A DNA stretch of 64,000 nt from Psammoneis japonica (Eukaryota), in NCBI GenBank assembly GCA_008632985.1, contig QPGO01000019.1, positions 744,001 to 808,000 of the forward strand. Direction: 5' to 3'. Below, piece by piece: positions 2,453-60,400 of this stretch. Position 1 is the first letter of the stretch. Every line of letters begins with the position of its first letter. Made by a program: the position numbers and the translations under genes. The notes under the pieces are model-generated. The model saw only the letters and a program-made list of their open reading frames with translations. It was not told the origin of the DNA and did no database searches.

Positions 2453-3329
2453 CCCCCATGCTTGATACCGTTTGTGGAGAAATCCATAATTTTGTGTCGA
2501 CCCTATTTGCTTCGATGTATGTGTTCAAGATCATATAATGCACTCTTTTGTGAATCGTTTCACCTGCTTGGAGCCGGGGAAACGTCACGACAACGTGCAT
2601 GCTTTGGGCTATAGTTTCACTCGCATACGGGCCTTCGTACAAGTGTTTTCGAAAGATTTGTTTCGCTGGCTTGTAGTAGCCGGTAAGACGTTCAGCAGTC
2701 AGGTACCAATATGCATACCATTGAGTGTTGTGGCTATAATATAGAGGTCTCAGTTTTTGTGTCACTTTCAAGAATGTGTTGGTATTTTAAATATCTATAG
2801 CTTGCTGGCTCTGATCGTTGCTGTGTGAGTAAACCTCATACTTTGGATGGAGCACAAGGTGCAGTTGTAGGAAGAAAGCAAGCTACAGGTGGCTGGAGGA
2901 CTTTTTCTAGACGCACGCCGAAACTGGTGAAGAAAGGGACCACTTTCTGACCCCAGTAGGCTGCAAGGGTGTGATTCAGAAAAATAAATTACTGAAGTGC
3001 CGCTGAAAGTCGTTTTCATAGCAGTTGGGAGCTCTCACAGTGCACACTGACATGATCGAATGATCGTTTAGCTAAGAGCAGAGAGAGCTGTACGGTAGTG
3101 TAGCTTCGCCTTTTTCGAGCGAATGAGGGCACGATAAACACCAACCAGCTAGAGTAGCTTCTCTCTACTAGAGTAGAGCTACTCTCTCTAGATAGTAGAG
3201 AGTAGTTAGCAACGAAAGATGGTGCAGTACAAGTACCAACCTTGCATTCTTGTTACAGTATTATCCCTGACCAGGGTTTTCCGGTACCAATGACCACTGA
3301 GGACATTGAAAACATTAAAATGTTGAGGC

Positions 3330-4414
3330 GCTGTGGGATGCCACCGCTCGGATGACGCAAACCCCTTGAATATTCTGACGCAGTTTTTGACCAACATAAC
3401 CGGCACCGTTGTCGTACATAATAACGACAAATCCCGCGACAGCCCTACCCTTTCCCGCGTCCTCCATCGCCTGCCGTGTTTTCACATATCCTGCTAACGG
3501 CTCTTGAGCTTTGTATACACGAAATCAGCAGTGGGGGGCATTTCAGACTCAACTTGCTTCAGTTCCAATGTCACCACACTCGTGTCGGAACTAAATGTGA
3601 CATCTGTCCGCTTTCCGGTCGCTGGCAATTTGCCCTCTTGGCTTGTCCGTGCAATGTCCTGCAGAATGTCATGAGCCTCCGTGACGACGTGAGACTGGAA
3701 TTGAAGCTCCAAGACGTGATCATTGGAGTCTGATGAAGCCCACCCCATGAGTCTTGCCATGTTGCTTTGCGAAATGGAAGTCACAAAGTCCACCAATGTC
3801 TCTTCACCATGGGCACGCAAATCTTCCGCGGACTCCAGTGCAACCAACTTTTCCAACGAAGCTCGCAAGGTCTTCAGAAGGGGTTTGAGCAGGTTCTCGT
3901 GGTGGAACTCAGATGCAATGGTGAAAGCTGGGTTGTCGGTTGATGTCCCCAAGGCTGACACCACACCAACATGAACTGGCAAAGCAAGGTGGTCACTGAT
4001 GTCAATGGTTTCTTGCAAGAGATTCTCCAAACTCAGCTGCTCCTTGATCTCATGTCTTGGTCCTGAAGCTGTCTCCCCATCGGCCAGTTTGTTTGCCACT
4101 GGGCGCAGGTTCCTGCCATTGCACAAGACGTTGAACAGCAATGACGGAACCGGCTCCCATGCCAAACCTCCTGGCACCTTGCCAGTGGATGAGAATTTTT
4201 GTCGTTTCGTTTCCTTTGTTGGATCCAGCAACACATTCATCATGTGATTGACACCTCCGGTGTGAGAGAGAGGCTGACTCTCTGGAAATCGAAGGTCATT
4301 GAAGTTGCGCTTGAGCAAAGTCTTTGCCAGCTCCAGTGCACTCACTGGAAGTGACCCAGCCAGTCCGGCGACCCAATTTGCAAATTGCCCTGGTGTCGGG
4401 GTCATCCAATGCAC
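3330..4414 (-). pseudogene. Degenerate PD-(D/E)XK nuclease-like gene, copy A
   Basis: ORF 3494-4414 ends in GKRTDVTFSSDTSVVTLELKQ (R-x-D...E-x-K nuclease-like motif). It continues after a frameshift as ...QEPLAGYVK...AVAGFVVIMYDNG. His/Cys occupy expected Tyr positions (SEFHH here versus SEFYR in copy B). Confidence 0.55.
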
Positions 4415-4971
4415 ACAGTCAACAACAGGAAAGAAAATGAATGCTTTGTGGTCACAAGAACAAGAAGTCTCTGCTGTGGCCCAAGAATCATTGTTGTTGT
4501 TGTTGTCATCATTTCAGCAGTGGCTTGTTGTTGTTTTGCCATTGTTCCTTTGTTCATCGGCGCGCCACCTTTCTTCCCCCAGCTCCTCTTTCCCATCATT
4601 CCAACGGTCTTCTTTGACAATTGCAAGTAAAGCAGCAGTGACACTTTGTCAACAAGGCACTTTCACAAAGTTGCGGACGTCCATTGTGTCTTTCCCTGCC
4701 TGAGGCAGGCCTGGGCTGGAACCCGGTGACAACAAGACTGTCGACAACCAAAGGAGGTCACCAAGAAGATCTCATGTCATTTGCTTTCTTCACCTGACTT
4801 GGAAGAAGGAGGTGTGAAATGTCTAAATGTTGGAACAAAAAGAGCAGTTGGCAACGAAAGATGGTGCAGTGCAAGCACCAACCTTGCATTCTTGTTGCAG
4901 TGTCATCCCTGACCAGGGTTCTCCGGCACCAATGACCACTGAGGACATTGAAAACATTAAAATGTTGAGGC

Positions 4972-6056
4972 GCTGTGGGATGCCACCGCTCGGATGACGC
5001 AAACCCCTTGAATGTTCTGACGCAGTTTTTGACCAACACAACCGGCACCGTTGTCGTACATGATGACGACAAATCCCGCGACAGCCCTGCCCTTTCCCGC
5101 GTCCTCCATTGCCTGCCGTGTTTTCACACATCCTGCTAACGGCTCTTGAGCTTTGTGTGCACGAAATCAGCAGTGGGGGGCATTTCAGACTCAACTTGCT
5201 TCAGTTCCAATGTCACCACACTCGTGTCGGAACTAAATGTGACATCTGTCCGCTTTCCGGTCGCTGGCAATTTGCCCTCTTGGCTTGTCCGTGCAATGTC
5301 CTGCAGAATGTCATGAGCCTCCGTGACGACGTGAGACTGGAACTGAAGCTCCAAGACGTGATCATTGGAGTCTGATGAAGCCCACCCCATGAGTCTTGCC
5401 ATGTTGCTTTGCGAAATGGAAGTCACAAAGTCCACCAATGTCTCTTCACCATGGGCACGCAAATCTTCCGCGGACTCCAGTGCAACCAACTTTTCCAACG
5501 AAGCTCGCAAGGTCTTCAGAAGGGGTTTGAGCAGGTTCTCGCGGTAGAATTCAGATGCAATGGTGAAAGCTGGGTTGTCGGTTGATGTCCCCAAGGCTGA
5601 CACCACACCAACATGAACTGGCAAAGCAAGGTGGTCACTGATGTCAATGGTTTCTTGCAAGAGATTCTCCAAACTGAGCTGCTCCTTGATCTCATGTCTC
5701 GGTCCTGAAACTGTCTCCCCATCAGCCAGTTTGTTTGCCACTGGGCGCAGGTTCCTGCCATTGCACAAGACGTTGAACAGCAATGATGGAACCGGCTCCC
5801 ATGCCAAACCTCCTGGCACCTTGCCAGTGGATGAGAATTTTTGTCATTTCGTTTCCTTTGTTGGATCCAGCAACACATTCATCATGTGATTGACACCTCC
5901 GGTGTGAGAGAGAGGCTGACTCTCTGGAAATCAAAGGTCATTGAAGTTGCGCTTGAGCGAAGTCTTTGCCAGCTCCAGTGCACTCACTGGAAGTGACCCA
6001 GCCAGTCCGGTGACCCAATTTGCAAATTGCCCTGGTGTCGGGGTCATCCAATGCAC
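4972..6056 (-). pseudogene. Degenerate PD-(D/E)XK nuclease-like gene, copy B
   Basis: Paralog of copy A (ORF 5136-5819), with the same frameshift plus an additional in-frame stop upstream. Confidence 0.55.
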
Positions 6057-7598
6057 ACAGTCAACAACAAGAAAGAAAATGAATGCTTTGTGGTCACAAG
6101 AACGAGAAGTCTCTGCTGTGGCCCAAGAATCATTGTTGTTGTTGTTGTCATCATTTCAGCAGTGGCTTGTTGTTGTTTTGCCATTGTTCCTTTGTTCATC
6201 GGCACGCCACCTTTCTTCCCCCAATTCCTCTTTCCCATCATTCCAACGGTCTTCTTTGACAATTGCAAGTAAAGCAGCAGTGGCACTTTGTCAACAAGGC
6301 ACTTTCACAAAGTTGCGGACGTCCATTGTGTCTTTCCCTGCCTGAGGCAGGCCTGGGCTGGAACCCGGTGACAACAAGACTGTCGACAACCAAAGGAGGT
6401 CACCAAGAAGATCATGTCATTTGCTTTCTTCACCTGACTTGGAAGAAGGAGGTGTGAAATGTCTAAATGTTGGAACAAAAAGGGCTCAGAAATGTGCACC
6501 CGTGGTGGCAACAAATGCATCAAAGTGGAGAAGATGTCACGAAACAACAACAATGTTGGCAACAAGTGTCAAAGTGTCGCTGTTGTTTCACCAGATTCCA
6601 GCAGCAGCAAAAAGCAGTCTCAGTCTCTTTCTCCAACTAAAAGGAAAAAAGAAGTTTTCACTGTCAAAAACCAGACTTGAGCCGGGCTCCATTAAAAACT
6701 GCCAGGTGGCCAGGAAGATGTTTGGAGTCTCGCAGAGGAACTGTGCCAAGATCGTGCAGCACCGGTCGATCATTTTTGGTGTTGGGCAGTGTCATGACTC
6801 AGCAAATTTGGAAGACTCTGTGCCTGGCAGAAATTGTGCATGCTTGAGTCCCACACATTCCTGGCTCTCCATGCTGGAACACCATGTTGAATTTTCAAAT
6901 GATGGGCATGAGCCAAGCCAACAAAGACATTGATGTGTGGATGAGACCATCCTTGACAATGGCTCTGCCCCCAGCACAGCAGCAAGCCAGAGACTGGCAC
7001 ACAATGTGCAACCAGAAAAAACCAAGATTGATCTGTTGAGGAACACAAGAGTGGACACTTCAGATGAAAACTCTGCTGTGCCATGCCTGGATCATGGGGG
7101 ATGCAAAGCTTGGATCACAGAATGACATGGCAAACATCCTCAATTCAATGGATGTGAAGAGCAAGCACTGTGTGACTTGCAACAACCAAGTGGCAGACAA
7201 GTTGCTTCTGACTGCTGGACAAGAAAACTGGCAAGCAAGCAAGCAGCGGCATTCAAAGTGAATGACACTAGACTGCAAACCTTTGCATTGAGCCAGCAGA
7301 AGGTCTTTGAGAGTGACCACACAAAAGATCTCCAAGAAAGTCAGTTGCACATGAGCATGCTGTCAAAAAACAACAAGAAGAAGGGTGAAAAGAAGCACTG
7401 TGGTTCCGACAGTGGAGCAGAATTTGGCCACAGAATCATTTTGATTCTTTTTCTGTTGATTTTACAAATTTTTGTTTTTCATGTGACAAAAAAAGAAAGA
7501 GTGCCAAAATGATGGCCCACATCCACCACGATTGTCATCAACAAGCCCATCAACACAATGCAAATGCACAACACAGCCGCCAAAAGATCAACCACAAA

Positions 7599-8704: not shown

Positions 8705-11700
8705 ATGGTGGAAGGAGAGGATGAAAACACGCTGGAATCTCAGCGGGAGGAAGCAATCAGGGAGCTTTTAACGCTTTGTGCGGAGTACGTTGGAAAAAAG
8801 ATACTGCATGTCACAAACTGAGGTGACATTCTGCAGGCTCACTATTTTTTGCTTCAATGACTGTACTACAGGCAAAATGTAAATGTCCCCGTAAAGATGC
8901 GTGCCGCCATTCTAGGCAAGGACATTACCGAAGCTCATGAAAAGGGGCCTCCGCTGAGCAAGCTTGAGTTTGCCATTGAGCAACGAGTTTCTGAATTGGC
9001 AGCCCTGGAGGACGATGAGTTGTTTCAGGAGATTCGAAAAATCTTTGAAGGACTCAAGGCGTCGCCGCCCAAGTTGGAATGCCGAGTCATTAACGGTAGC
9101 TATACAGTGACAAACCCCGTGCCGGACATGGACGAGCCGCGTCTTTGCAAAGGCGACGAGGAAACTCCATCCAGCGGTGCGCGAGTAAAGCAGCGTATTG
9201 AAACGGTTCACAATCAAATGCCCATTCACAAACTCTTCTTGGCGGTTCGGAAAATGTTTAAAACACGCAGTCTCAAGCCAGAAACCAAGGAGCAAGTGAT
9301 TGTGGATGGTATCAACTTGAGGCTCGAGCCGGGAAAAATGTATCTTGTACTTGGTGCTCCGGGTTCTGGAAAGGTGAGAGATTCTTAAATGTGGCTTTGT
9401 CTGTTTGCAATTCAGCTGAGCAGTTGAACTTCTGATTCTAATGTTGCTCTTGCACCCTCCACTGCTTCTTACGGTAGTCGACTCTACTCAAGATGATTTG
9501 CGACACGCTCCGTCAGGATGCCAAGCACGTTGTTGGTGGTGATGTAATGATCAACGGAATCAAACCTAGCGATAAGGGCGTCGTGTGGCCGGTAAGTACA
9601 TGTACAGGATTCCTTTTTGACTTGTTCAAGTGTCACTAAACAATAAATGCTTCACTTCTTTGGACTCTGCTACCAGACACTGACGGCCTACATTGACCAG
9701 ATTGATCGACTTCACAAGTTCTGACGGTAAAAGAGACGTGCACTTTTGCCTTTAAGTGTCGTTCGGGGGGCACTCATGCCCTGGTAAGTTGCCATACGCC
9801 ATTGGTCAGCATCAAGAATTTCATCTAAAGCTCCTTAATACTTAGACTAACAAGCTGTTCTTCGAATACCTTTAGTCGTATCTCAACATGGACGATCCAG
9901 AAGTGGTGGAAACTGTCAAGAAAATGGATGAGGAGCAATTTCTTGTCAATGCCGTTCTCAAAGGAATGGGCCTCGCTCGAGTCAGCGACACGTTTGTGGG
10001 AGACAATGTTTCGGTTCGTGGTGTCAGTGGTGGAGAGAAAAAGCGTGTTACTGTGGCTGAAATGATTGCCGTTCGATCTCCGTTCCTTTGCTGTGATGAG
10101 ATTAGCACGGGTTTGGATGGTAAGTGACGACTGTATGCCAGTATGATTCATCCTGCGTTTGGGTCTCGTGTGACATTGTTTCCTAACTGATGCTGTACCC
10201 ATCTTGATACGAATGCAGCGGCTACCACGTATGATATTATTAAGTTGATGGGAGCCACTGCTAGACTCACAGTGTCCACCAAAATTGTGTCGCTGTTACA
10301 GCCTCCACCGGAAACGGTCGCCTTGTTTGACGACTTAATCCTGCTGGATTCAGGAAAAGTGATTTATTTTGGACCGGTAGATGATGTCGTGCCGCACTTT
10401 GAGTCGCTTGGATACAGCCTTCCCGAACGGATGGACACGGCCGATTGGTTACAGGTACGATCTCACGCTAGTGTCTCATAGTTTTCCTCTACCCCACTAA
10501 AATCTTTGCGTTTGCGGCTTCCTAAGGCCCTTCCAACTCGCGACGGCGCCGATTACCTCGTCGACAAGGACAGCGACCATTTGTCTACAGACGAATTTGT
10601 GGAAAAATTCCTCTGTAGCGAGCATGGGCTGAGCCTCATGGAATCGCTTTCCGAGCCCATTCAGGAAGACAAGGAAACAATTGATCATAACTTTTCCACT
10701 AAGTACGCGAATGGCTGGAACAAGTCATTGAAACTTCTAGTCGACAGGGAAATGCTTCTTTGGTGGAGAGACAAGGGAAGCATCATTGCAAGGCTTATGC
10801 AAGGTAAGTGCCCACTTCTTTGGGGACCGTAGGCACGTGTTCAAGGCTGTCTGTGTGCCACTGAATCTTACAGAACATTTATTTTTTCAGACTTGATCAT
10901 GGGTATTGTGGCTGGCACTCTCTTCTGGCAGCAGAGCGAAAATCCTGGATCCGTGATGGGAATTTTATTCCAGGGTATGTTCTTTGCTTCGCTCGGTGCG
11001 ATGAATAGGGTACCCGAGCAATTTGATGTGCGCGGGATTCTGTACAAGCAGCAGGATGCGAAATTTTTCCCGACATGGAGCTTTGTTGTTGGAAGGAGCC
11101 TAGCAGGTGTGCCAACGGCCCTAATTGACAGCGTTCTCTTTGGCAGTATCCTTTACTGGTTCGTCGGGCTCGCTTACAACGATGGTGCCTCCATTGCAAA
11201 CTATTTTGTTTTTATGCTTCTGATTTTCATCACGGCCTTATGCGTTGGCCTCATGTTCAGCATCTTCTCGGCCACCGTGGCTGACAAGTCGACGGGGCAA
11301 GCTGCACAAGCTGTTCTCTTGGTCATCTTTATATTGTTCTCTGGATTCACGGTACAGGCTGATATTATTCCAGAGTACGTTTTGCGAATGTTCTTGCATA
11401 CTAACCTGCTTCAAAAAAGAGTTACCTTACATCTTGCGCTAGTTTTTGGATCTGGGTGTATTGGGGTAATGTTTTTGCATGGCAGTTGCGAGCACTGGCC
11501 GTTAACGAATATCAAAGCGGCAAATATAGCGATGAAGTAGCTCCAGGAGTAACCGAGGGAGATGCAATTTTAGACCAGTTCGGCTTTACCTGGGTAAGTG
11601 AATTTGCTGTTAGCCAAAATCTGCTTCTTCTTCGCTGCCTTATTAATTTTGCTTGTTTCATTTTTGAAAGAATGGCGAGCCATTTGAATACGAATGGGTT

Positions 11701-14700
11701 TGGTAAGGAGATGCTTTTGGATCTACGGTGCAGTCTTGTTATTGTTCTTTGCTTTTCTGACGAGTCTATTATATTTAACAATCGCTTCGCCCAGGTACGG
11801 AATTGCCTTTTCAATTGGTATGGCATTCATTTCTGTCTTAGCATCAGTATACTTCTTGAAGACTTTGCGCTTCGACACTGGCAAGTCTCTTGCAACAGAG
11901 GCGATTGAGAGTGAAGGAGACGACGAACCTATTGAGGAGATTGAGCTTCCCTTTCAGAAAGTGAACCTAACCTTCAAGAATATCCACTACACGGTGTCGG
12001 CATCGACGAGTGACGAAAAGCTTGAGCTTCTCAAGGGTGTTGATGGATATATTGAAGCAGGGAAAATGACGGCGTTAATGGGAAGGTAGGTGTCTGCACG
12101 ACATCCAGAATTCTAAAGCAACATGCCCCTAAACATTTCCGTTGTCCCCGTAGCTCCGGTGCTGGCAAAACAACTCTGATGGACGTGTTGTCGTTGCGTA
12201 AAACAAGCGGCGAAATTACCGGAGAGGTGCATTTAAATGGACACTTGCAGGAGCCCTTGTCGTTTCGGCGCTGCACTGGTTACGTCGAACAGGTTGGTTC
12301 CATCTCGATCATTTTTGATTTCATACTCATCTCGTTCCTTCCCATTCGTTCATCATCTACATCCCTTTCCTTCCTGTTCTTCCTCTCTTTAGTTTGACGT
12401 TCAGACTCCACAGCTCACGATCCGGGAGACGGTGGAGTTTTCAGCTCTGCTTCGCTTGGAAGAGTCGGACCCTGCAGTGACTCAGGAGAGCAGGACGAAG
12501 TTCGTCGATCAGACGCTCGCCAGCCTTGAGCTAACGGAAATACAAGATTTGCAAGTTGGTAGTGACCTGACGGGAGGTCTGTCTTTTGAACAGAACAAAC
12601 GTCTCGCGATTGCCGTCGAGCTTGTGTCGAATCCGTCAGTGATTTTCTTAGACGAGGTGAGGAGTCTTCGTCCCTCTTTCATGTTTCTCTTTTTTTCTCC
12701 TTCTCGCGTCTCACAGAGAATTTGCCTTGTCGACGTTCGAAAGCCTACGAGGTGAGAAGCCTAAGTCCCTCTTTCATGTTTCTCTTTTCTTCTCCTTCTC
12801 GCTTCTCACATAAAAATTGCCTTGTCGACGAAAGTGGATTGGACGCTCGCGCCGCGGCCATTGTTATGAGGGGGCTCAAACGGATATCGGATGGTGGGAG
12901 AGCCGTGTGCGCAACGATTGTAAGTGTAACGTTGGCTGTACGATTACTCTTGTACCCAGCATGCCCTGGATATGTATCTAACGTTGTGACGCCCCATTGT
13001 TAGCATCAACCGTCTGTTGCGATTTTCAATTCCTTCGATTCTCTCTTGCTTTTGAAGCGTGGAGGAGAGACGGTGTTCTTCGGAGATCTTGGAGACGAAA
13101 GCTCGAAGCTTATCGAATATCTTGAGCGATATCCTTCCACTCCTCCGATTCGTAAGGGTGAAAATCCTGCCACTTGGTTAGTCATCTACAATTCATTCCT
13201 CTTTTCTGTCTTTTTACTTTACCTCAATTACCTGCTTCATTGATTCGTGTGTAATCAGGATGCTTACGACGATTGGAGCTGGTTCAAGCACAGCAGGTTT
13301 GAAGCCTTTCGACTATGCTGGTAGCTTTGCGGCCTCGGGATTAAGGAAAGACGCATTGGCAAAAATAGACGCATTTGTCGAAGGAGCAAACGACGACAAC
13401 CGAGTCTCCTTCCCCACAAAGTATGCAACCGACCGAAAGACGCAGCAGCGTCACGTTTTCCGACGCGCAATGACGATATATTGGCGGTCTCCCACCTACA
13501 ATTTAGTGAGAATGATCGTTTCCATAGTTGTGGCACTCTTGTTCGGTGAGTGAAATGATCGGCTGTATTTTCTGCTTTGTTTTCACCATTGGTCGTGTCC
13601 TGTGGTGCCTCTTAGGATACCGCATTCGGCTCATACTCCTTGCTAACGTTGTTCCGGTGCCAGGGAGTGTATACGCAAGTCAGAGAACTCCGTCGACTGA
13701 GAGCGACATGAATTCTCGTGTGACGACAATCTTTGTCTCTGTTCTCTTCCTTGGTAAGCCACTTAGCCGCAGGGACTCGCTTGTTTTGCTCCTATTTCTC
13801 ATCCTTTTCTATTGCTTCGTTATCGTACAAAGCCGTTAACGCCTACAATACCGTGCTTTCATTATTTGAAATGGAACGCAATATGTTTTATCGCCACAAG
13901 GCAAATCTGATGTAAGGGCCGCTTCAGATTCTGTCACCATGCTTTCATTGCTTTCTCAAGGGTCTTCTAAACCCAATCGGATGATTGTTTCCCACGCGCA
14001 GGTATGATCAGCGGGCTACTTTGGTGGCGTTTACTGTCGCTGAAATTCCATTCATTTTAATGTCGAGTATCCTATTTGTCGTTCCCTTCTACTTTATGGT
14101 CGGGTTTGCATCGCAAGCCGATAAGTTCTTCCTTTACTACTTGTTCTTCACTTTGAATCTTGGTCTGTTTACTTTCTTGGGGCAGGTGAGTTGCACAAAA
14201 TTGATGATGTCTCGTTTTCTGCGGAACGTTTTGCTTAGACTAAATTTTCTTCCTTTAGATGATGGTTTCTGTCACAAGGAATAGCGAAACGGCTCAAGGC
14301 TTTGGTGGCTTAATTATCGGCTTGACCGCCTTGTTTTCAGGTGTCCTCATTCGACCTCAACACATTAATGGTTTTTGGGTCTTTGGTGAGTTGAACATTT
14401 GCGCTGTGGGCGTCAGAAGTTCTGTTTTGTTTCTTTCCTCTCTAACCTTCTATCATTCACCATTTGCAGCCTACTGGCTTTTTCCAGGGCACTACGTGAT
14501 GGAAGCGCTCATTACATCTCAGGTGAGTAGCGTGACTGAAGTGTGAAGATTCCGTTCGTCTATCTATGGAGATAGCTGACTCCTCTTGGCGTCACCCATT
14601 TCCTGAATCAGTTTAACAACGACGACACTCCAATCACCCCGTCGTTTGGAAGTGACTTTTACTATTTTGTATACGGTTCAGAAGAATGTCAGGAGTTGGT

Positions 14701-14881
14701 GGACCAAGACAGCTCGGCCATGTGCACAGGCACGGCCGAAGAATGGATTGAAGTCAGTTTTGGTGGTGAATTTCAGTTTTCACACATATGGTATGACTTC
14801 CTTTATTTGTTTGGAGCAATCATCTTGTCGAAAATCATCACTTTTGTAGCTCTTTCGAAGCTGAACTACCTTGCCAAATAA
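8705..14881 (+). CDS. Full-size ABCG (PDR-type) ABC transporter, multi-exon; one apparent frameshift at ~9720
   Basis: NBD1 ([33 protein letters not shown]), TMD1, NBD2 ([40 protein letters not shown]) and TMD2. About 20 short GT-AG introns; stop TAA at 14879-14881. Confidence 0.92.
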
Positions 14882-15885: not shown

Positions 15886-16779
15886 TTAGATTTCCCATTC
15901 ACCCTCCCGAGGAGCACTTGCCGCTGCACAACTAAAGCAGCAATGGACAGATCGGCTAGTAGCCACATCATAGTACCCGGGGCAGAAAACCAAGTCGGGC
16001 TGCGTATCGTTGACCTTAAGCCTTCCGCGTTTGCACTGTGGACAATGTCCAAGACAGCCGTATGTGTATCCATCAACAATTCGGGCTAGTAGGGTCGGCT
16101 TTGTACCAGAAATGTGCTGAAAGTTCTTGCCCAGCATCTCCTTCATTTGAGGGACCTTCATTTTCTGAAAGAGAACTTTAGCCTCGTCAGCCTTGGTATT
16201 CTCGTTGAAAATGGTAGTCTCCTTGTCTGGGTCAAACCAGGGGCCATCACGGGGTGCGTCTTCGGCACTGCAGCAATAGTCACACGACACCAGACCTTCA
16301 TAGCCATCGTAGTATCCTGGGCAGAAGACAACATCCGGCGACTCGTCAAGAACCTTGAGCCTTCCCTTGAAGCACAAGGGACATTCCGATAGACGTCCAT
16401 AGCGCTCGCCATCGGCTATCCACTGGAGAAGAGTAGCCTTCTTGCCAGTTACATGCTGTCCGTTTTTGCGTAAGATATCTTTAAGCTGCTTAACGGTCTT
16501 CTTCTGGTGCGGCGAGATTGGAACCACAGTGACTTCTTGGGGGATAGAATCATATTTGGTATGAGGTAAGTCGATACCGATAGGTTTGTTCTCTTTATCT
16601 TGAGACGCATCGTCGTTGTTGTCAATGGGAACTCTCTTGTTCGAGCCGAGTGCCGCCGGAGTCGTTGTGTGCGGCGTCACCGTCGCAAAAGTGTCGCATG
16701 GCGTCTCTCCCCGGCTGGGTGAGAGGAACGAGGTTGCGTCGATCTTTTGTTTCTTTCTTGATGGTGCGATTGCCTTCAT
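15886..16779 (-). CDS. Protein with two tandem PADR1 (PARP1 Zn3-type) domains, no catalytic PARP domain
   Basis: Two units of LK..L..N.Q...G.K..LL..I.DG..YG.L..CP.C..G.L.V......V.CPGYYD......C. Start placed at MKAIAPSRKKQK (NLS-like); the ORF is open to 16935. Confidence 0.75.
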   Translation of the reverse strand: MKAIAPSRKKQKIDATSFLSPSRGETPCDTFATVTPHTTTPAALGSNKRVPIDNNDDASQDKENKPIGIDLPHTKYDSIPQEVTVVPISPHQKKTVKQLKDILRKNGQHVTGKKATLLQWIADGERYGRLSECPLCFKGRLKVLDESPDVVFCPGYYDGYEGLVSCDYCCSAEDAPRDGPWFDPDKETTIFNENTKADEAKVLFQKMKVPQMKEMLGKNFQHISGTKPTLLARIVDGYTYGCLGHCPQCKRGRLKVNDTQPDLVFCPGYYDVATSRSVHCCFSCAAASAPREGEWEI

Positions 16780-18605
16780 GGCTGTTTGTTCTTTGATGTT
16801 ATGGGAAAGTAATGACACGGTGGCGGGGTTTGCGTTTTGGAAGAGGAGAGAGGGTTCGGATTTCGAAAGAACGGCACGTAGTAGGTTCCACTGCAAGCTG
16901 CACGCACTACGACACCAAAGTGAACGTACGAGCATGTATGTAGAAGGTACTTACAGTAGTCCCGCCTGCAGGGTTGACATCGGTCGCAATTTTAGTCGTG
17001 TGTTCTCTCGTTTCAGTCGTGCTGAATGTTCCCCGTCTGCCATCAGTTCGCTCGAGCTGTGCTTGTGGAAATGTCAAATAGCTACATGACCGGTGCTGTA
17101 CAGTAGCAAGCGACCCTTCGTTCGAATCACCAAGTCAAATAGAAATACTAGCGGGGGCTAATCGTCGAGGCGGCGTCTTCCTATTCCAGTTTCTCTCTTT
17201 GTTGCTGACACCGCTGTTTAAACCTGCTGCTCATCATAGGAGGCCACACTGCTGGCCAGCTGTCTCTGTGAAACATGAACTCTCCACGAACGAATCATCG
17301 GAAAAAAGAGAGAAAGCCCGGCAGTCTACTTATGTTTGGCAAAGACTATCGTCGAACGTCTATATGCCATGTGAATTCCTGAGAAATGAGTTTTCCGATG
17401 CCACTCTTTGGCTCTTTGCGCATGGCAATCTTTGCAATCCATGTATCGTGAACCTTTGCGGTGCTTCAATGTAAGAGAAATACATTCATCAATCACGTTA
17501 CGACAGTCTTGGGGTACACTACTCACGAAAGCGGTCACCGAAGGTTTCTCGGACTTTTTCGACAGCTCGTTTGATTCTTGTCGACACGGCATCCCTGGAG
17601 CTAGTTTTCGGGGGACGGGATCGCATCAGGCATACCATACCGTATGCAAACTATTGTAAATAGAAGGTACAGAGAACAAGTGATGCAATCAAGATGCTGC
17701 CTAGAATACTTACATCGTACAATTGATTTGATCGAGATGCTACGCAAAATTAATCAACATTGAAGATTGAAGAGAAACAACGTGATCACACAGGAAAAAG
17801 CACTCGGTTGTTATGATCCACCCCGGCTCCTCGCTGCTTGTCGTTCAGAGACGTTGTCGAACAAGCACCCTCAACCGACGTGATCCATCCAGAATCGATT
17901 CCTGGTTCCACCTGGTATTGCAGCTCGACATTCACCGTGTTTTTGACAAGTCCATAGTACGTTTTGGTCCAGGAATTTTGTCAACTTCCTATGCGGCGGT
18001 GGGAATATCTTCATCGTGGACGTACCGTTGTCACAATCTCTGTACTGTTTGGGCTTCTTCAAGGCCGACGAGAATGCATTTTTCTCAATTGGTATACTTA
18101 ACAGTCGGTTCCGCTACTGTAACCTTGCAGTGTCACCAGTATTGTTTTCGTCTTTATTCAGAGCATTCGCTGGAATGACCAACAGGTAAGCAATGGAGTC
18201 TTGACAATGTCGCCATAGACCAAGGTGCTAGAGACGCCGTAAATCATCTACCCATTTTCTCTTCGGAGCCGTGTTCTGGTTCCCTCTGTGCAGAATGCTC
18301 GGCACTAGTGAAATTAGGAGAGGAAAAAAGCATGCTTGGTTCTCCAGAGCGTGGGCTTTCCACGCGTTTGAGAGCTTTATTGGTGGCAGCTTTGCACGGC
18401 TTGAAAGCTATTTGCACTTTCGGTCGTCAATAGATTTGATTCATCATTGAGCATTCAAGTTTTGACACAAGTGCTTTCGGATATCATCGAATTGATTCTG
18501 AAATCATACTGCATACAACAAAAATGAATTGCGCAGCTGATGTGAACAAATACTAAAACTGAAAAGTTACGGGAGCGTCGTAAATATCTAATTTGAAGAC
18601 TCTCT

Positions 18606-19430
18606 CTACGAGGCCTCGCTGGTGACCTCTTGAGCAACCTTCAAGCGGTCAAAGTACTCGTCAAGCGGGAAATGCGTGTCGGCATCTGCGACAAACGTGT
18701 CGCCACTCTGATAAGGGAGATCGCCATGAACAAAGTCACGGACAATGGAGGCGAGCTCACCAGCTTTTCCAGGGCGCTGGCTTGGATTGACCATTTTCGC
18801 AAAAGCCTTTGCCATGTCTGCGTCACCGCCCACGAACCTGTCAGACATTTCTGTCTCATACAAGGTAGGATTGATAGATACCACCGACAAGGATTTGATG
18901 CGTTCATCTTGAGACTCAGCAAACTGGGCAGCGTAAGAACGGACGAGACTGTCGACAGCGGCCTTGGAAGAAGCATAAATGGGATTGCCCGAGAAAGCCA
19001 TGATGGAGCCAGCACTGCTTGTAAAGACAAATGTGCCACCAGCTTGAAGGAGTGGGGTGCCATATTGCAGTCCCAAGATGACACCGCGTACGTTCACAGA
19101 GTAAATATAGTCATATGTCTTGATGTTGAGGTTCGACACCATGGTCTCTTCGTTGCTTCCCTCCACACCAGCGTTGAGAAGGATAAAGTCAACCTTTTCC
19201 TTACCGAAGTGTTTTTCAGCGGCTTTAAAGAACACTTTGTTCGACTCCTCATCCGCAACGTCAACAATGTGGAAGGTAGAGTTGGTTTCCTTTGCGACAG
19301 CCGCGCCGCGGTCCTCACGGCGACCACCGATGAAAACGCTTGCTCCTTCACTGCTTAGAGCGGACGCCATTTGCACACCAAAGCCGGACGTGGCTCCAGT
19401 GATGATGATGTTTTTGCCTTCGAGACTCAT
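18606..19430 (-). CDS. Short-chain dehydrogenase/reductase
   Basis: MSLEGKNIIITGATSGFG (TGxxxGxG), LNAG and YASSK (YxxxK); intronless. Confidence 0.92.
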   Translation of the reverse strand: MSLEGKNIIITGATSGFGVQMASALSSEGASVFIGGRREDRGAAVAKETNSTFHIVDVADEESNKVFFKAAEKHFGKEKVDFILLNAGVEGSNEETMVSNLNIKTYDYIYSVNVRGVILGLQYGTPLLQAGGTFVFTSSAGSIMAFSGNPIYASSKAAVDSLVRSYAAQFAESQDERIKSLSVVSINPTLYETEMSDRFVGGDADMAKAFAKMVNPSQRPGKAGELASIVRDFVHGDLPYQSGDTFVADADTHFPLDEYFDRLKVAQEVTSEAS

Positions 19431-19967
19431 GATTTGGAGTTTTGATGTTGTTGTTGGACTTGTTTTGTATGATTTGTGAGATGAAATTGTGAGGAGAAGC
19501 AATGGAGAAGCGAGAAACGACGCTCGGCGAAGGCGAAGTCACCGCCTCAGAAGGCGAAATCCGCATCCACGTAGAAATGACAAATTTCGTACTGAACGCT
19601 ACAGTTAAGTTTGCCCGGACGGTTGGACGGACGACGGTGCGCTGATGATCGTTCGAATTCTCTCGAACTCACTTTTGTTCCTGACTTGGATTTCAATTCT
19701 TGGCGCACACTCTTCGAGGCTTGCTCTTGTTTCTATTGAAGCCGTCCGAAATCCCTTCAGTTCTTACGGCAATGTCTACTCAATTGAACGGGTTGTTTTT
19801 TGCAGAAGAGCGTTGGTAGACTTAGACTCAACCATGGCAATTACCATTCCTAATAATAGTAGGGACGTAGACAGCTTGCTACTAGCTCTTCTGAACTCGT
19901 TGTTGTTGGCGATAACCATCCATGCGTTTGACTGGCTAGATCACTTATGAGAATCAGTATGAACTCA

Positions 19968-30489: not shown

Positions 30490-31910
30490 TCATGTTTGGT
30501 GCAATTGAGGCATGCGCACAACTTGCGCACAGCAGCGCAATGTCGGACAGACGACAGGCCGACGATGACGATGACATTTTTCTGATGCTCTTGCAAAACG
30601 ACTTTGCAACAGGCACTTGACATGTTGATCAATGACACTGTGGGGAACACTTGCATGTAAAGAAAGTCCCCCGGACGAACTCACAATCATTCGACATTCG
30701 AGTGCACAAAACGATCGTCAAAAAACAGAGCTCCTTGTTGGTGTGACGTTTTGCTTTCGAACAGAGGTTGCTGGCGGGGACTTTCATGACTGAATGCATT
30801 CTTAAACTCAACAAACTAAATGTCCACAAGACGCGTTCCAGCTCTGGGTGGGACCTCGCACTGCTGAACTGTGACATCGACAGTTTTTTGGATCGCACCG
30901 CATGTCGCACACGTAGAAAGGTACGTGACTTTTCTGAAATTTTGTGTCATTTTGTGGTGCACTCACTGAGCGATCCGTCCAACAACTTTTGACATTTTTT
31001 TGTTCTGCGCCATTTGCAAATGTCTTAAGAATGGCACAGGGCAGGCGGATTGACGAAAATGTCAAGCGGCAATGGTCACAATTGTGCCACAAACTTGGTC
31101 ATTTGTTTGATGTTGAAGATGAAAATGTCCGTTGATTAAATTCTCGTAATGCGGAGCTCGCACGTAGAATTCTGCGGGCCAAATGTCACAAAAAGTCCCA
31201 CCCAGGACTGGAACCCGTCACAATGACAAAAGACTCTGGGACACGTCGCTGTCATCGCTGTCGTTGCAACAACGCACCACCGTCACGTCGCCAATTTTTG
31301 GCGATGAGGCACGCAGCACCCTGCACGTTTCTCGTGCAGCAGAAAATCCTGAAAAATCAAATTGTCGTGCCTCCACCCCTTCGTCATGCGAATGCCTCAA
31401 GGCATGCGCAGAACTTGCACACAGCAGCGCAATGTCGGAGAGACGACAGTTGTGCTTTTTTTGCGATTTGCGCAACAGAATTGCCGTCGACGCCGACAAT
31501 GACGATGACATCTTTCTGACGCTCTTACAAAACGACTTTGCAACAGACACTTGACACATCAATCGACGACACTGTGAAGCACACACATGTGTAAAGAAAG
31601 TCCCCCGGACGAACTCACAATCGTTCGACATTCGAATGCATGAAACGATGGTCAAAAAACAGAGCTCCTCATTGGTGTGACGTTTTGCTTTCGAACAGAG
31701 GTTGCTGGCGGGGACTTTCATGACTGAATGCATTCTTAAACTCAACAAACCAAATGTCTGTAATGACAAAAGACTCTGGGACACGTCGCTGTCATCGCTG
31801 TTGTTGCGACAACACATCATCGTCACGTCGCCGATTTTTGGCGATGAGGCGCGTAGCGCGCTACGCGTTTCTTGCACAGTGGAAATCCTGAAAAATCAAA
31901 TTGTCGTATT
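30490..31910. repeat. Tandem duplication (~0.5-kb unit) whose first copy is interrupted by a MITE
   Basis: 30510-30829 matches 31400-31763, and 31220-31368 matches 31760-31908. Confidence 0.85.
30830..31219. mobile_element. MITE copy 1 (390 bp), TIR GACGCGTTCCAGCTCTGGGTGGGAC, 4-bp TSD ACAA
   Basis: Right end gtcccacccaggactggaacccgtc is the near reverse complement of the left end. acaa at 30826-30829 and 31220-31223. An empty site is present in the duplicate at ~31752-31770. Confidence 0.92.
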
Positions 31911-32439
31911 TTCACCGTTTTGTTCTGCGATTGCCTTAAGGATGGATCGTTGTTTGGTGGTCGATTTTATTTAGAGCTCCCAAACATTTAAAAATGACCC
32001 GGATCTGTCGTGCTGACAGTGCGCGCGTTCGCCAAAAAAAAAAAATCAGCGACAGGTCGGAACTTTGTCTGTTTCTAAGACAACACAGAATGCACATGTG
32101 ACGGTTGCGACCATGCGCGAGGATGTGCAGCTTAACGACTGCAGACATGTCCACAGCCGGTCAAATGCCAATTGTCGGCATTTCCTGGAAAGTTGTGGCT
32201 TGTCTGCCGCAACAGTCCGATTTTGGCGGAAAATGGCGGTTTGTCGCATGTGACAACCAAGGCAACTATGACAATTGGCGTTTGAAGGTTAAAATGTGCA
32301 GTTCACACAAAGGTCTGACAGCCCTGATGGGGGCTGGACACACTCACATGTGTTTGGGGGTGCTCAGAGGCTTCTCGCAAAATGACACGGGCGAAGTGTG
32401 GGGAAATTCGAAAATCACGAGCCATTTAAAAAAACAGTG

Positions 32440-51400: not shown

Positions 51401-51847
51401 GAGTGCAATGTGCAGCTGCTGGCAAGAGTCAGCGCATCACGGCGACGTGTTGCAGCCTTTAAATGTCACAAAGGGCATGACAAAACAACCTTTTGTCTGC
51501 ATGCATGCTGCGTTGTGAATTCACAGCGGAGTGGTTCATCGCAACCATCAGGCAGGAGGCCAGGGGTTCGAAACCCTGAGTGGGAGTTGTCTGCAGCAAC
51601 GTTGATCACTGTCGAACGCGTAAAACTCTGTGCAGTTCTGCATGTTCCTTCGTGCGTACCCACACTGTTCCGCCAAAACCGTGCAGTGTCAGTGCACGTT
51701 GGCAAAGAGCCGTGTGGACGCGTGATGCATGGGGAGGAGTGCAACACACAGCTGCCAACAAGAGTCAATGTGTCACGGCGACGTGTTACAGCCTTTAAAT
51801 GTCACAAAGGGCGTGACAAAATAACCTTTTGTCTGCATGCATGCTGC
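51401..51847. repeat. Two ~110-bp direct repeats (51401-51511, 51737-51847)
   Basis: Shared cacggcgacgtgtt.cagcctttaaatgtcacaaaggg..tgacaaaa.aaccttttgtctgcatgcatgctgc. Lies downstream of the copia relic, possibly LTR-derived. Confidence 0.85.
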
Positions 51848-56353: not shown

Positions 56354-56745
56354 GACGTGTTCCAGCTCTGGGTGGGACCTCGCACCACTGAACTGTGACA
56401 TCGACAGTTTTTTGGATCGCACCACATGTGTCGCGCACGCAGAAAGGTGCGTGACTTTTCTGAAATTTTGTGTCATTTTGTGGTGCACTTGTTGAGCGAT
56501 CCGTCCAACAACTTTTGACATTTTTTTTTACAGCGCGATTCTTAAATGTCTTGAGAATCGCGCAGGGCAGGCGCACCTGCAAAAACGTCAAGCGGCAATG
56601 GTCACAATTGTGCCACAAACCTGGTTGTTCATTTGATGTTGAAGACAAAAATGTCCATCAATTGGATTCTTGTAATGCGGAGCTCGCAAGCAGAATTCTA
56701 CGGGCCCAATGTCACAAAAAGTCCCACCCAGGACTGGAACCCATC
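56354..56745. mobile_element. MITE copy 2 (392 bp), 4-bp TSD GTGC
   Basis: Collinear with 30830-31219; gtgc at 56350-56353 and 56746-56749. Confidence 0.92.
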
Positions 56746-58815: not shown

Positions 58816-60400
58816 CCACACTTGGCAGTTCCGACAGTGTTGACAACAGCGCACTACTCGGTGCAGATGATGGAGTCATGGGCGGCACATGTGACGGTAC
58901 ATCACTTGGCATTGCGGATGGCACATGTGACGGCACAGAAGGTGCATTTTGACGGAACTGCTGACAGTGTTGTGGATGGCATGTCACTTGGTTCAAACAA
59001 TGGATTTGTCAATGGTGCATGTGGTGCATGACTAAGAAATGATCTGGGAACCGTCAAAGGTGTTTCTGATGGCACGTCGCTCTGTGCATCAGATGGAACT
59101 GTCAACGGCACACAGGTGGCGGTGGGCGCATTGGCAGATGGCAGAACAGGTGGTGTTGGGTGCGGCGTGCTAGACGGCGTTGGACGTGTTGCACTGGCAG
59201 ATGCAGACGCAGGCGGCAATGGGCGTGGAGCACTAGACGGCATTGGACGTGTTGCACTGGTGGATGGCAGAATGGGTGGCATTGGGTGCGGCGTGCTAGA
59301 CGGCGTTGGACGCGTTGCAACAGCAGATGGTGGCGCAGGCGGCTTTTGGCGTGGAGCTCTGGACGGCATTGGACGTGTTGCACTGGTGGATGGCAGAATG
59401 GGTGGCATTGGGTGCGGCGTGCTAGACGGCATTGGATGTGTTGCACTGGTGGATGGTGGCGCAGGCGGCGATGGGCGTGGAGCACTGGTGGATGGCATTG
59501 GATGCGTTGCACTGGCAGATGGTGGTGCAGGCGGTGATGGGCGTGGAGCTCTAGACGGCATTGGACGTGTTGCACTGGTGGATGGCAGAATGGGTGGCAT
59601 TGGGTGTGGCGTGCTAGACGGTGTTGGACGTGTTGCACCAGTGGATGGTGGCGCAGGCGGCGATGGGCGTGGAGCACCAGTGGATGGCAGAATGGGTGGC
59701 ATTCGGTGTGGCGTGCTGGACGGCGTTGGACATGTTGCACTGGCAGATGGTGGCGATTGGCATGGCGCAGACGGTGTTGGATGTGTTGTAACGCAACAAT
59801 GAAACACCCCCTGGCAGATGGTGGCAATGGGCATGGCGCAGATGGCATTGGACATGTTGCATGTGCACAGAATTAGCTTCACATCAGCTTCATGTTGCAG
59901 TGGCCCCTGGAATTGTTGAGTGCGTCGGAATTGAATGTGTGATTGCACTGGTGGGAGCGTGGGGTGCCGGTGGCATCATGTTCTTGTTTTGGTTGCGTCT
60001 TGTGCATGAGGCAAATGCATTGGAGCTGGCGAGGAAACACAAACGCGACAAGAATGCAATGCGTGCAGAATTGTCAAGTGCGCATGGAATTGAATGCGGG
60101 GCTGTGCAGGTGGGAGCGTGGGCTGCCAGCACAGTGGCATCATGCCGGTGTTCTTGTTTCAATTGCATCTTGTGCAAGGCAAATGCACTGGAGCTGGTGA
60201 GGAAACACAACAATGCAATGCCCCTGGGATTGTCGAGTGCGCATGGAGTTGAATGCGTGCTTGTGCCGGTGGGAGCATGAGCTGCCAGCACAGCAGCATC
60301 ACACTCTTGTTGCGATTGCGTCTTGCACGAGGCAAAAGTGCTGGAGTGCAACAGACCCACAGAAGCAGTCAATTTTAAACCGGCAAAAAACATTCCAAAG
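58816..60400 (-). pseudogene. Decayed mucin-like Pro/Ser/Thr repeat gene with ~60/120-bp and ~165-bp tandem units
   Basis: ORF 58902-59948 of PTPSSTPHPMPPILPST repeats and PSDVPS-type repeats; three ~165-bp units at ~59905-60350; TA-depleted. Confidence 0.55.

Follow-up and report, generated by a model that had tools for sequence, protein, structure and literature searches.

Two near-identical neighbouring introns around an 8-nucleotide micro-exon in a diatom ABC transporter gene: a probable case of local intron copying

A transporter gene of the diatom Psammoneis japonica contains two neighbouring introns of nearly the same sequence, which are separated by a micro-exon of only 8 nucleotides (nt). 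The gene was analyzed within a stretch of 64,000 nt, called the window throughout (assembly GCA_008632985.1, contig QPGO01000019.1, positions 744,001 to 808,000 of the forward strand); all coordinates below are positions in this window, and all features of the gene lie on its plus strand. Tblastn searches with the full-length diatom homologues P0017, P0041 and P0070 yielded 13-15 collinear pieces from 8822 to 14869, and the limits of the gene, which were taken from these pieces, are approximate. The gene spans about 6 kb and is collinear with diatom ABCG/PDR transporters of 1418-1500 amino acids. In the open reading frames (ORFs) of its exons, the Pfam domains ABC_tran, ABC2_membrane_7, ABC2_membrane, ABC_tran, ABC2_membrane_7 and ABC2_membrane followed one another in this order. 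As an ABC2 membrane domain comes after each of the two ABC_tran ATPase domains, the predicted product is a full-size ABCG/PDR transporter (drug pump), with nucleotide-binding and transmembrane domains alternating twice. The coding region is interrupted by many short introns.

The intron pair is located at the Walker B/D-loop region of the second ATPase domain. The exon upstream of the pair (12393-12656, FDVQ...NPSVIFLDE) extends from the signature motif to the Walker B motif of the second nucleotide-binding domain. It matched Pfam ABC_tran (E 2.5e-6) and was 72-86% identical to its best homologues, the named sources of which were all diatoms (Seminavis, Fistulifera, Epithemia, Pseudo-nitzschia, Cyclotella and MMETSP transcriptomes). 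Its 3' end is GACGAG, and the final five bases, ACGAG (12652-12656), directly precede the donor of the first intron, intron A. Intron A (12657-12743, GTGAGG...GAAAG) has a length of 87 nt and is inserted in phase 0 after the Walker B glutamate. It is followed by the micro-exon CCTACGAG (12744-12751), which reads CCT ACG AG and encodes proline, threonine and two thirds of a serine codon; its final five bases are a second ACGAG (12747-12751). Directly behind lies the second intron, intron B (12752-12834, GTGAGA...GAAAG), with a length of 83 nt and in phase 2 within the serine codon, which is completed by the next exon (12835-12919, D-loop region). The order of letters is therefore exon end TTAGACGAG, intron A, CCTACGAG, intron B, and next exon TGGATTGGACGC. 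A first-pass annotation, made from the letters of the window, had described this arrangement, including the near-identity of the two introns, the contribution of the micro-exon to the Pro-Thr-Ser part of the motif and the ACGAG ahead of both donors, and its coordinates and letters turned out to be exact.

The similarity of the two introns was quantified in several ways. An alignment revealed nine substitutions in 83 aligned positions and one indel of 4 nt near the 3' end, corresponding to a Jukes-Cantor distance of 0.117. A repeat search retrieved an ungapped match of 84 nt with 89% identity, which included ACGAG and had a spacing of 95 nt. Tandem Repeats Finder reported a period of 95 with 1.9 copies and a score of 295, and the pair had an E value of 1.3e-24 when the window was compared with itself using blast. 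The local alignment of A and B had a z score of 36.5, and none of 200 shuffles scored as high, whereas the best z score among the other 77 pairs that can be formed from 13 introns of the host gene and its relatives was 6.2. The repeat is thus far beyond chance. The likeness begins 5 nt upstream of each donor, with ACGAG, and stops exactly at each acceptor. The three bases following intron A are CCT, those following intron B are TGG, and the downstream flanks differ. The flanking exon was consequently not duplicated together with the intron; upstream, only the 5 nt ACGAG are in common.

In other respects, A and B are ordinary introns. Their lengths of 87 and 83 nt compare with 68-100 nt in four neighbouring introns, and their predicted folds were not unusually stable (z +1.35 for A and -1.43 for B). 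The first nine bases of intron B, GUGAGAAGC (12752-12760), are perfectly complementary to GCUUCUCAC (12801-12809) in the putative branch region. The corresponding helix in intron A contains two G-U pairs and one mismatch, and three of the nine differences between A and B are located in this helix.

Three sequencing runs from one sample were used for the analysis of splicing. None of them is recorded as RNA; one, X2, is labelled 'DNA?', and another, X3, yielded no contig that could be placed here. Because X2 contigs skip five GT..AG segments within 12000-13500, they were treated as transcripts. An X2 contig of 1641 nt with a depth of 1591 consists of 12391-12656, CCTACG, 12833-12919, 13004-13175, and 13258 onward. 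Its junction reads GACGAG-CCTACGAG-TGGATT, with an AG whose placement at the joint is ambiguous. Neither intron is present in the contig; both are thus spliced out of the mRNA while the 8-nt exon is kept, which answers the question of the first-pass annotation whether transcripts contain it. When the exons are joined by their coordinates, the reading frame is intact and conserved across the Walker B/D-loop region, and DEPTSGLD is translated in frame. Skipping of the micro-exon would shift the frame, retention of B would lead to a stop codon at the B donor, and retention of A would add 29 codons in frame. Isoforms that skip the micro-exon or retain A or B were not found among the X2 contigs; as contigs drop rare variants, this result does not address minor forms.

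Two further observations concern the introns of the host gene. A 100-nt intron (12293-12392) splits GYVEQ/FDVQ at a position where nearly all relatives are uninterrupted, and a 158-nt X2 contig spans this intron in unspliced form, which suggests possible intron retention. Overall, the gene appears to be unusually intron-rich in comparison with relatives whose ORFs of 300-590 amino acids are unbroken.

The search for further copies covered the 64-kb window and 80 related loci with a total length of 220 kb. No third copy of A or B was found in the window, neither by blastn with A and B nor by comparison of the window with itself. In the 80 related loci there was none either; the matches had lengths of only 13 to 42 nt, identities of 76-100%, and E values of 0.04-0.5. 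The further copies that the first-pass annotation had considered worth looking for are thus absent from the part that was covered. No inverted repeats were found in 12000-13500, and neither intron copy is flanked by a target-site duplication, as the exon bases behind the introns (CCT and TGG) do not repeat ACGAG. The introns of L001, L002, L004, L005, L008 and L018 had no similarity to A or B or to one another above the level of pyrimidine tracts (z <= 6.2). Greater length than that of regular introns together with a stable fold, which characterizes the fungal introner-like elements (ILEs), is not a property of A or B. In the 3' parts of A (12715-12735) and B (12806-12826), the 13 bases AATTGCCTTGTCG are identical to L002:1912-1924. 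In L002 and L003, they represent codons for RIALS about 60 nt downstream of the intron site, while the exons of the window itself lack a match. This match, one of 16 that were tested and with a z score of 4.8, was judged to be probably due to chance. The only Rfam hit in 12300-13100, to sR52, was also discarded, as it had 18 bits versus a gathering score of 50; it lay in the region of another intron and on the other strand.

Next to the comparison within the gene, the intron positions of relatives were compared. From 120 listed proteins, six without the anchor motif were dropped and 114 were classified. Their intron positions were inferred from the letters with which ORFs on genomic or metagenomic contigs read through after NPSxxFL, and not from DNA. 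In 39 proteins the region was contiguous without an intron, but at least 11 of these are named by MMETSP/EukProt and are possibly transcript-derived. An intron after DE, the position of A, was found in 14 proteins, 12 of which read DEV, one DES, and one DEY. The most frequent position was after SGL (28 proteins), and further positions were after PTS (7), after FL (6), within the glutamate codon in phase 1 (6), after TSG (5), after DAR (4), after LVA (2), and after or within DEP (2); the state of one protein was unclear. Position B, which would read DEPTR, was found in none of the 114. Taken together, 74 of the 114 relatives have an intron in the 17 codons from LVA to DAR, mostly one per gene, and at least ten different positions are used in this hot spot (after LVA, FL, DE, PTS, TSG, SGL or DAR, in phase 1 between D and E, behind or inside the P codon, and B in the window). 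Among the genomic homologues, nearly all have an intron in this stretch.

At the DNA level, nine of 80 metagenome loci were read, namely the eight closest, L001-L008 (74-82% identity in the best segment), and L018 (65%). L002 and L003 have a single intron exactly at position A, GACGAG/GT...AG/CCCACGAGTGGACTT, with both ACGAG motifs present and with an acceptor side that reads AG/CCCACGAGTGG. An intron after SGL was found in L001, introns after FL in L004 and L018, and an intron in a glycine codon in L008. L006 and L007 have no intron, and in L005 a 14-nt exon is enclosed by two introns. Again, position B was found in none of the nine loci.

For the phylogeny, a tree of the segment from Walker A to Walker B was calculated (122 rows, 134 columns, quick search, LG+G4; the row of L018, which is mistranslated as an intron lies inside the match, is to be ignored). 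The window clustered with P0010, which has an intron at A, with the contiguous P0019, and with P0003 and L004, which have the intron after FL; the Shimodaira-Hasegawa-like approximate likelihood ratio test (SH-aLRT) value of this cluster was 84. P0010 was among the five rows nearest to the window by path. Position A was scattered over several separate clades. Because A recurs in relatives and B was found in none, B was taken as the copy, and we regard A as the older position with moderate confidence.

The two introns of L005 (920-1110, 77% identity) are located at the site equivalent to that of the window, and the 14-nt micro-exon between them is CAACGAGTGGATTG. They have no similarity to one another and show no sign of copying. 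P0005, a close sister of L005 (SH-aLRT 99), reads DEPTSGL without the first L005 intron, and its downstream intron opens with read-through letters that are identical to those of L005. Because P0005 lacks the first intron, L005 seems to represent a second recent gain, or a loss, beside an existing intron.

These results led to the following scenario. Intron B is probably a same-gene duplicate of its older neighbour A that was generated at the DNA level by local copying guided by microhomology. The ancestral gene would have contained only intron A, between GACGAG and CCTACGAG-TGG, as related loci still do. As Asp-Glu and Thr-Ser are both written with ...ACGAG, two ACGAG motifs would have been 95 nt apart in this A-only DNA, and a template switch or slippage between them could have copied the intron anew behind the second ACGAG. 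Two routes are conceivable. In one, the template would be switched twice during a single event of repair or replication, back via ACGAG and forward via AG, and the intron alone would be inserted. In the other, slippage or unequal exchange between the ACGAG motifs would produce a clean tandem duplication of 95 nt that adds a second CCTACGAG; this route would additionally require that the downstream AG served as acceptor or that 8 nt were lost afterwards, as well as the 4-nt indel. The copy would have carried its own donor, branch region and acceptor, so that it could be spliced, leaving the 8-nt exon and preserving the frame. Retention of the parent only 8 nt away is what a copy at the DNA level predicts. 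The suggestion of the first-pass annotation that the intron gain was templated by the neighbour is therefore supported, A and B being the only similar pair in the window, both spliced, and only A having counterparts in relatives.

The participation of the microhomology, which the first-pass annotation had also proposed, was examined by counting. ACGAG occurs seven times in the 6.2-kb gene span, where 4.4 occurrences are expected. In the 357 nt of the local spliced exons, which contain 29 AG sites, it occurs just twice, exactly at the two donors, and a random landing of B at an AG would have had a chance of about 1 in 28 to hit it. Because ACGAG is found solely at the two donors in the local exons, homology-guided copying is favoured; the mechanism as such is our inference. 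The likeness extends into the exon by 5 nt on the 5' side, but these bases are at the same time dictated by the codons at the two sites (GAC GAG and ACG AGt). Local duplication at the DNA level is common and is visible nearby in two further cases, which were counted in favour of such copying. In the distant homologue L070 (1617-1745), a unit of 43 nt, which consists of the exon end NPSIVFMDEPTSG and the donor GTTAGTAA, is present three times in tandem at the matching exon-intron junction, and L071 and L072 have a single copy of this unit. In the window itself, a tandem duplication of 1647 nt with 97.6% identity (3199-4845 and 4841-6485) precedes the transporter gene; no Pfam domain matched the ORFs of this duplication.

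The age of the copy can be estimated roughly. A diatom rate of 2.3e-7 per site per year, which is based on a laboratory mutation rate, is given in PMC12130899. With d = 0.117, the relation d/2μ would result in about 2.5e5 years, indicating a copy that is young on an evolutionary scale and not brand new. The gain can thus be called recent, as it had been by the first-pass annotation, in a relative sense, the copies having already diverged by 11%.

Several points weigh against this scenario. The repeat is not cleanly head-to-tail: the second copy ends with GTCGACGAAAG/TGG instead of the GTCGACGTTCGAAAGCCTACGAG/TGG that is expected from a pure 95-nt duplication, and the pure-duplication route needs two later deletions of 4 and 8 nt (TTCG and CCT+ACGAG). 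An exact copy of the intron alone needs just the 4-nt indel, and the exact 3' boundary is a prediction of reverse splicing. The polarity leans on a weak tree and, for the 114 proteins, on positions inferred from read-through letters. In the tree, 48 of 112 inner branches are open and the cluster of the window has an SH-aLRT value of just 84; the nearest relatives disagree, with the intron after FL in P0003 and L004 and none or an unknown state in P0019 and P0036. Position A could also have arisen repeatedly in the hot spot. The extent of the copy search, the window and 220 kb of related loci, limits what can be said about uniqueness. Lastly, the mRNA would look identical if the genome contained only A or only B, so the two-intron structure is based on the window and on a contig of run X1, and the latter may be the source of the window's own sequence and thus be non-independent support.

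The main competitor of a DNA-level copy is an RNA-level route, in which the excised lariat of intron A was spliced in reverse into a transcript 8 nt downstream, after ACGAG, followed by reverse transcription and recombination. This would agree with a copied segment that ends exactly at the 3' AG of the intron, with the presence of only one 4-nt indel between the copies, and with the notion that a transposed intron brings along all of its splicing signals (PMC3443670); the identical upstream context of 5 nt might even favour a mis-registered re-insertion. However, the parent is still present 8 nt away, and therefore either a pre-mRNA with unspliced A as template or a recombination resolved within 8 nt would be required. 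Four rare steps would have to be combined, and according to PMC3443670 and PMC2891723 there has been no in vivo demonstration of reverse splicing into new sites. In addition, the neighbouring introns have all been kept, without a trace of a cDNA-mediated conversion. We therefore consider the RNA-level route unlikely, and favour copying at the DNA level over it. Somewhat less likely still is a reversed polarity, with B as parent and A as its copy by the same local mechanism. The microhomologies, ACGAG at the left end and AG at the right end, are symmetrical in this respect, the ancestral state cannot be fixed with so weak a tree, and positions in a hot spot may recur; but it is A that occurs in 14 proteins and in L002 and L003, in several clades, and B in none of the relatives. 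Moreover, the ACGAG motifs would be just 8 nt apart without A, and simple slippage would yield the copy only with A present.

The remaining alternatives appear improbable to different degrees. Separate insertions of a mobile introner, or of a low-copy intron family, would be in line with the report of introners in diatoms and other algae (PMC12130899), and the copy search covered only the 64-kb window and 220 kb of related loci. Yet no third copy was present in the window or the related loci, terminal inverted repeats and target-site duplications were lacking, length and folding energy were ordinary, and it would be highly surprising if two independent insertions had both hit behind ACGAG at a distance of 8 nt, so that this origin has little to recommend it. 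Even less credit is due to the conversion that had been offered as an alternative to a gain. L005 with its 14-nt micro-exon illustrates that relatives can contain two unrelated introns here, and two old, independently gained introns might have been homogenised by gene conversion. But conversion needs prior homology, and unrelated introns offer just ACGAG and the donor consensus; the likeness spans the whole intron up to both splice sites, and B was not found in relatives. A conversion between two old introns is highly improbable. The least plausible option is an assembly artefact or a dead gene copy. The only additional genomic support is the X1 contig (12775 nt, depth 59.9), which possibly stems from the same data as the assembly. 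This contig, a k-mer assembly, had no differences from the window over 12000-13500 and thus gave the identical path at a depth of about 60; a doubled assembly path is unlikely because the copies have diverged by 11%, and nine differing sites and one indel speak against a collapsed or doubled read path. Against a dead copy stand the high depth of the transcript contig and the intact, conserved spliced ORF.

The window contains several other features. Upstream of the transporter gene, an ORF (1334-2452) encodes an Armadillo repeat and a MYND zinc finger, and repeated stretches of about 500 and 430 nt with about 70% identity (1339-1834/2847-3250 versus 7553-8074/8087-8488) extend to just upstream of the gene. 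On the minus strand, two intron-free ORFs encode a protein with a SAP domain and a PADR1 N-terminal domain (15886-16950) and a short-chain dehydrogenase (18606-19538). Dispersed repeats of 50-390 nt with 84-94% identity are found in 30508-31941 and 56354-56745, and a degenerate tandem array with 75-78% identity is located at 59118-60346. A direct repeat of 111 nt (87%, 51401-51511 and 51737-51847) flanks a non-coding stretch with GGTTCGAAACCC, which resembles the T-arm of a tRNA; despite this T-arm-like sequence (51560-51580), ARAGORN called no tRNA in the window.

Clear pairs of a source and a copy are rare among spliceosomal introns, and how introns are gained remains a matter of debate. In the present case, 180 bases contain the parent, the copy, the 5-nt homology at the junction and the spliced product, and models at the DNA level and at the RNA level predict different outcomes that can be tested. 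Copying of an intron to the next site, followed by loss of the parent, could explain the apparent sliding of introns in diatom homologues. If this were true, a resident intron would be copied again a few bases away and its parent would be lost, so that introns could move without the gene ever being intron-less, and the window with its 8-nt exon and L005 with its 14-nt exon would represent the two-intron stage of sliding. That the pair is a live intermediate of such sliding by copy and loss is a speculative possibility that we put forward with reserve, because there is only one clear pair and the two introns of L005 are unrelated in sequence.

The pair can be compared with several known systems. 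In fungi, same-gene duplications (SGDs) of near-identical introns have been reported, with 82 introns in 24 species (Collemare et al. 2013, PMC3609843). About half of them lack a duplicated flanking exon, and intron transposition within one transcript or transfer between paralogues has been suggested; a few similar cases were noted in C. elegans (PMC3609843). The pair described here shares three features with SGDs of the non-segmental type: A and B are near-identical, both are spliced, and the flanking exon was not duplicated. As in the fungal cases, two near-identical spliceosomal introns of regular size are present in one gene, without the extra length or the stable fold of ILEs. It differs from them in its diatom host, in the distance of only 8 nt between copy and parent, which results in an 8-nt exon, in the upstream microhomology of 5 nt, and in transcript evidence for both introns. 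Such adjacency of parent and copy is not described in the passages of PMC3609843 that deal with SGDs.

A second relation is that to the model of intron gain by tandem genomic duplication of a segment that contains AGGT (Rogers; PMC3443670; Drosophila cases in PMC2891723). Comparable are a local repeat that may go back to a head-to-tail duplication, here with a period of 95, the supply of splice sites by the copies, and the restoration of the coding sequence by splicing. In that model, however, an exon becomes an intron, whereas here an existing intron was duplicated, and the second unit lacks the 11 nt that a clean duplication predicts, so that further deletions, or else another switch of template, have to be assumed. 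Gains by insertion at the DNA level are likewise characterized by a short direct repeat at the junction of the new intron, which here is ACGAG, and the filler DNA can in the present case be identified as the neighbouring intron. Nearby intron position pairs are alternatives within about 30 nt in homologous genes and are sometimes significantly similar in sequence (PMC2891723). Lehmann et al. (2010, PMC2891723) argued that the coexistence of two introns at a distance of less than about 32 nt is very unlikely within a single gene; in contrast to those pairs, A and B do coexist 8 nt apart and are both spliced.

Introners and ILEs also arise as copies of other introns (PMC4457414, PMC3609843, PMC12130899). 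Their copies number from tens to thousands, are spread over unrelated genes, and often have stable folds, terminal repeats or target-site duplications (PMC4457414, PMC3609843, PMC12130899); these hallmarks were not seen for A and B within the window and the related loci. The pair is best viewed as a single event of a class that is known from fungi, and as a good specimen of this class instead of a new principle. Its additional features are the adjacency to the parent, the microhomology at the junction and the transcript proof, and its context, a diatom hot spot of intron positions, is new.

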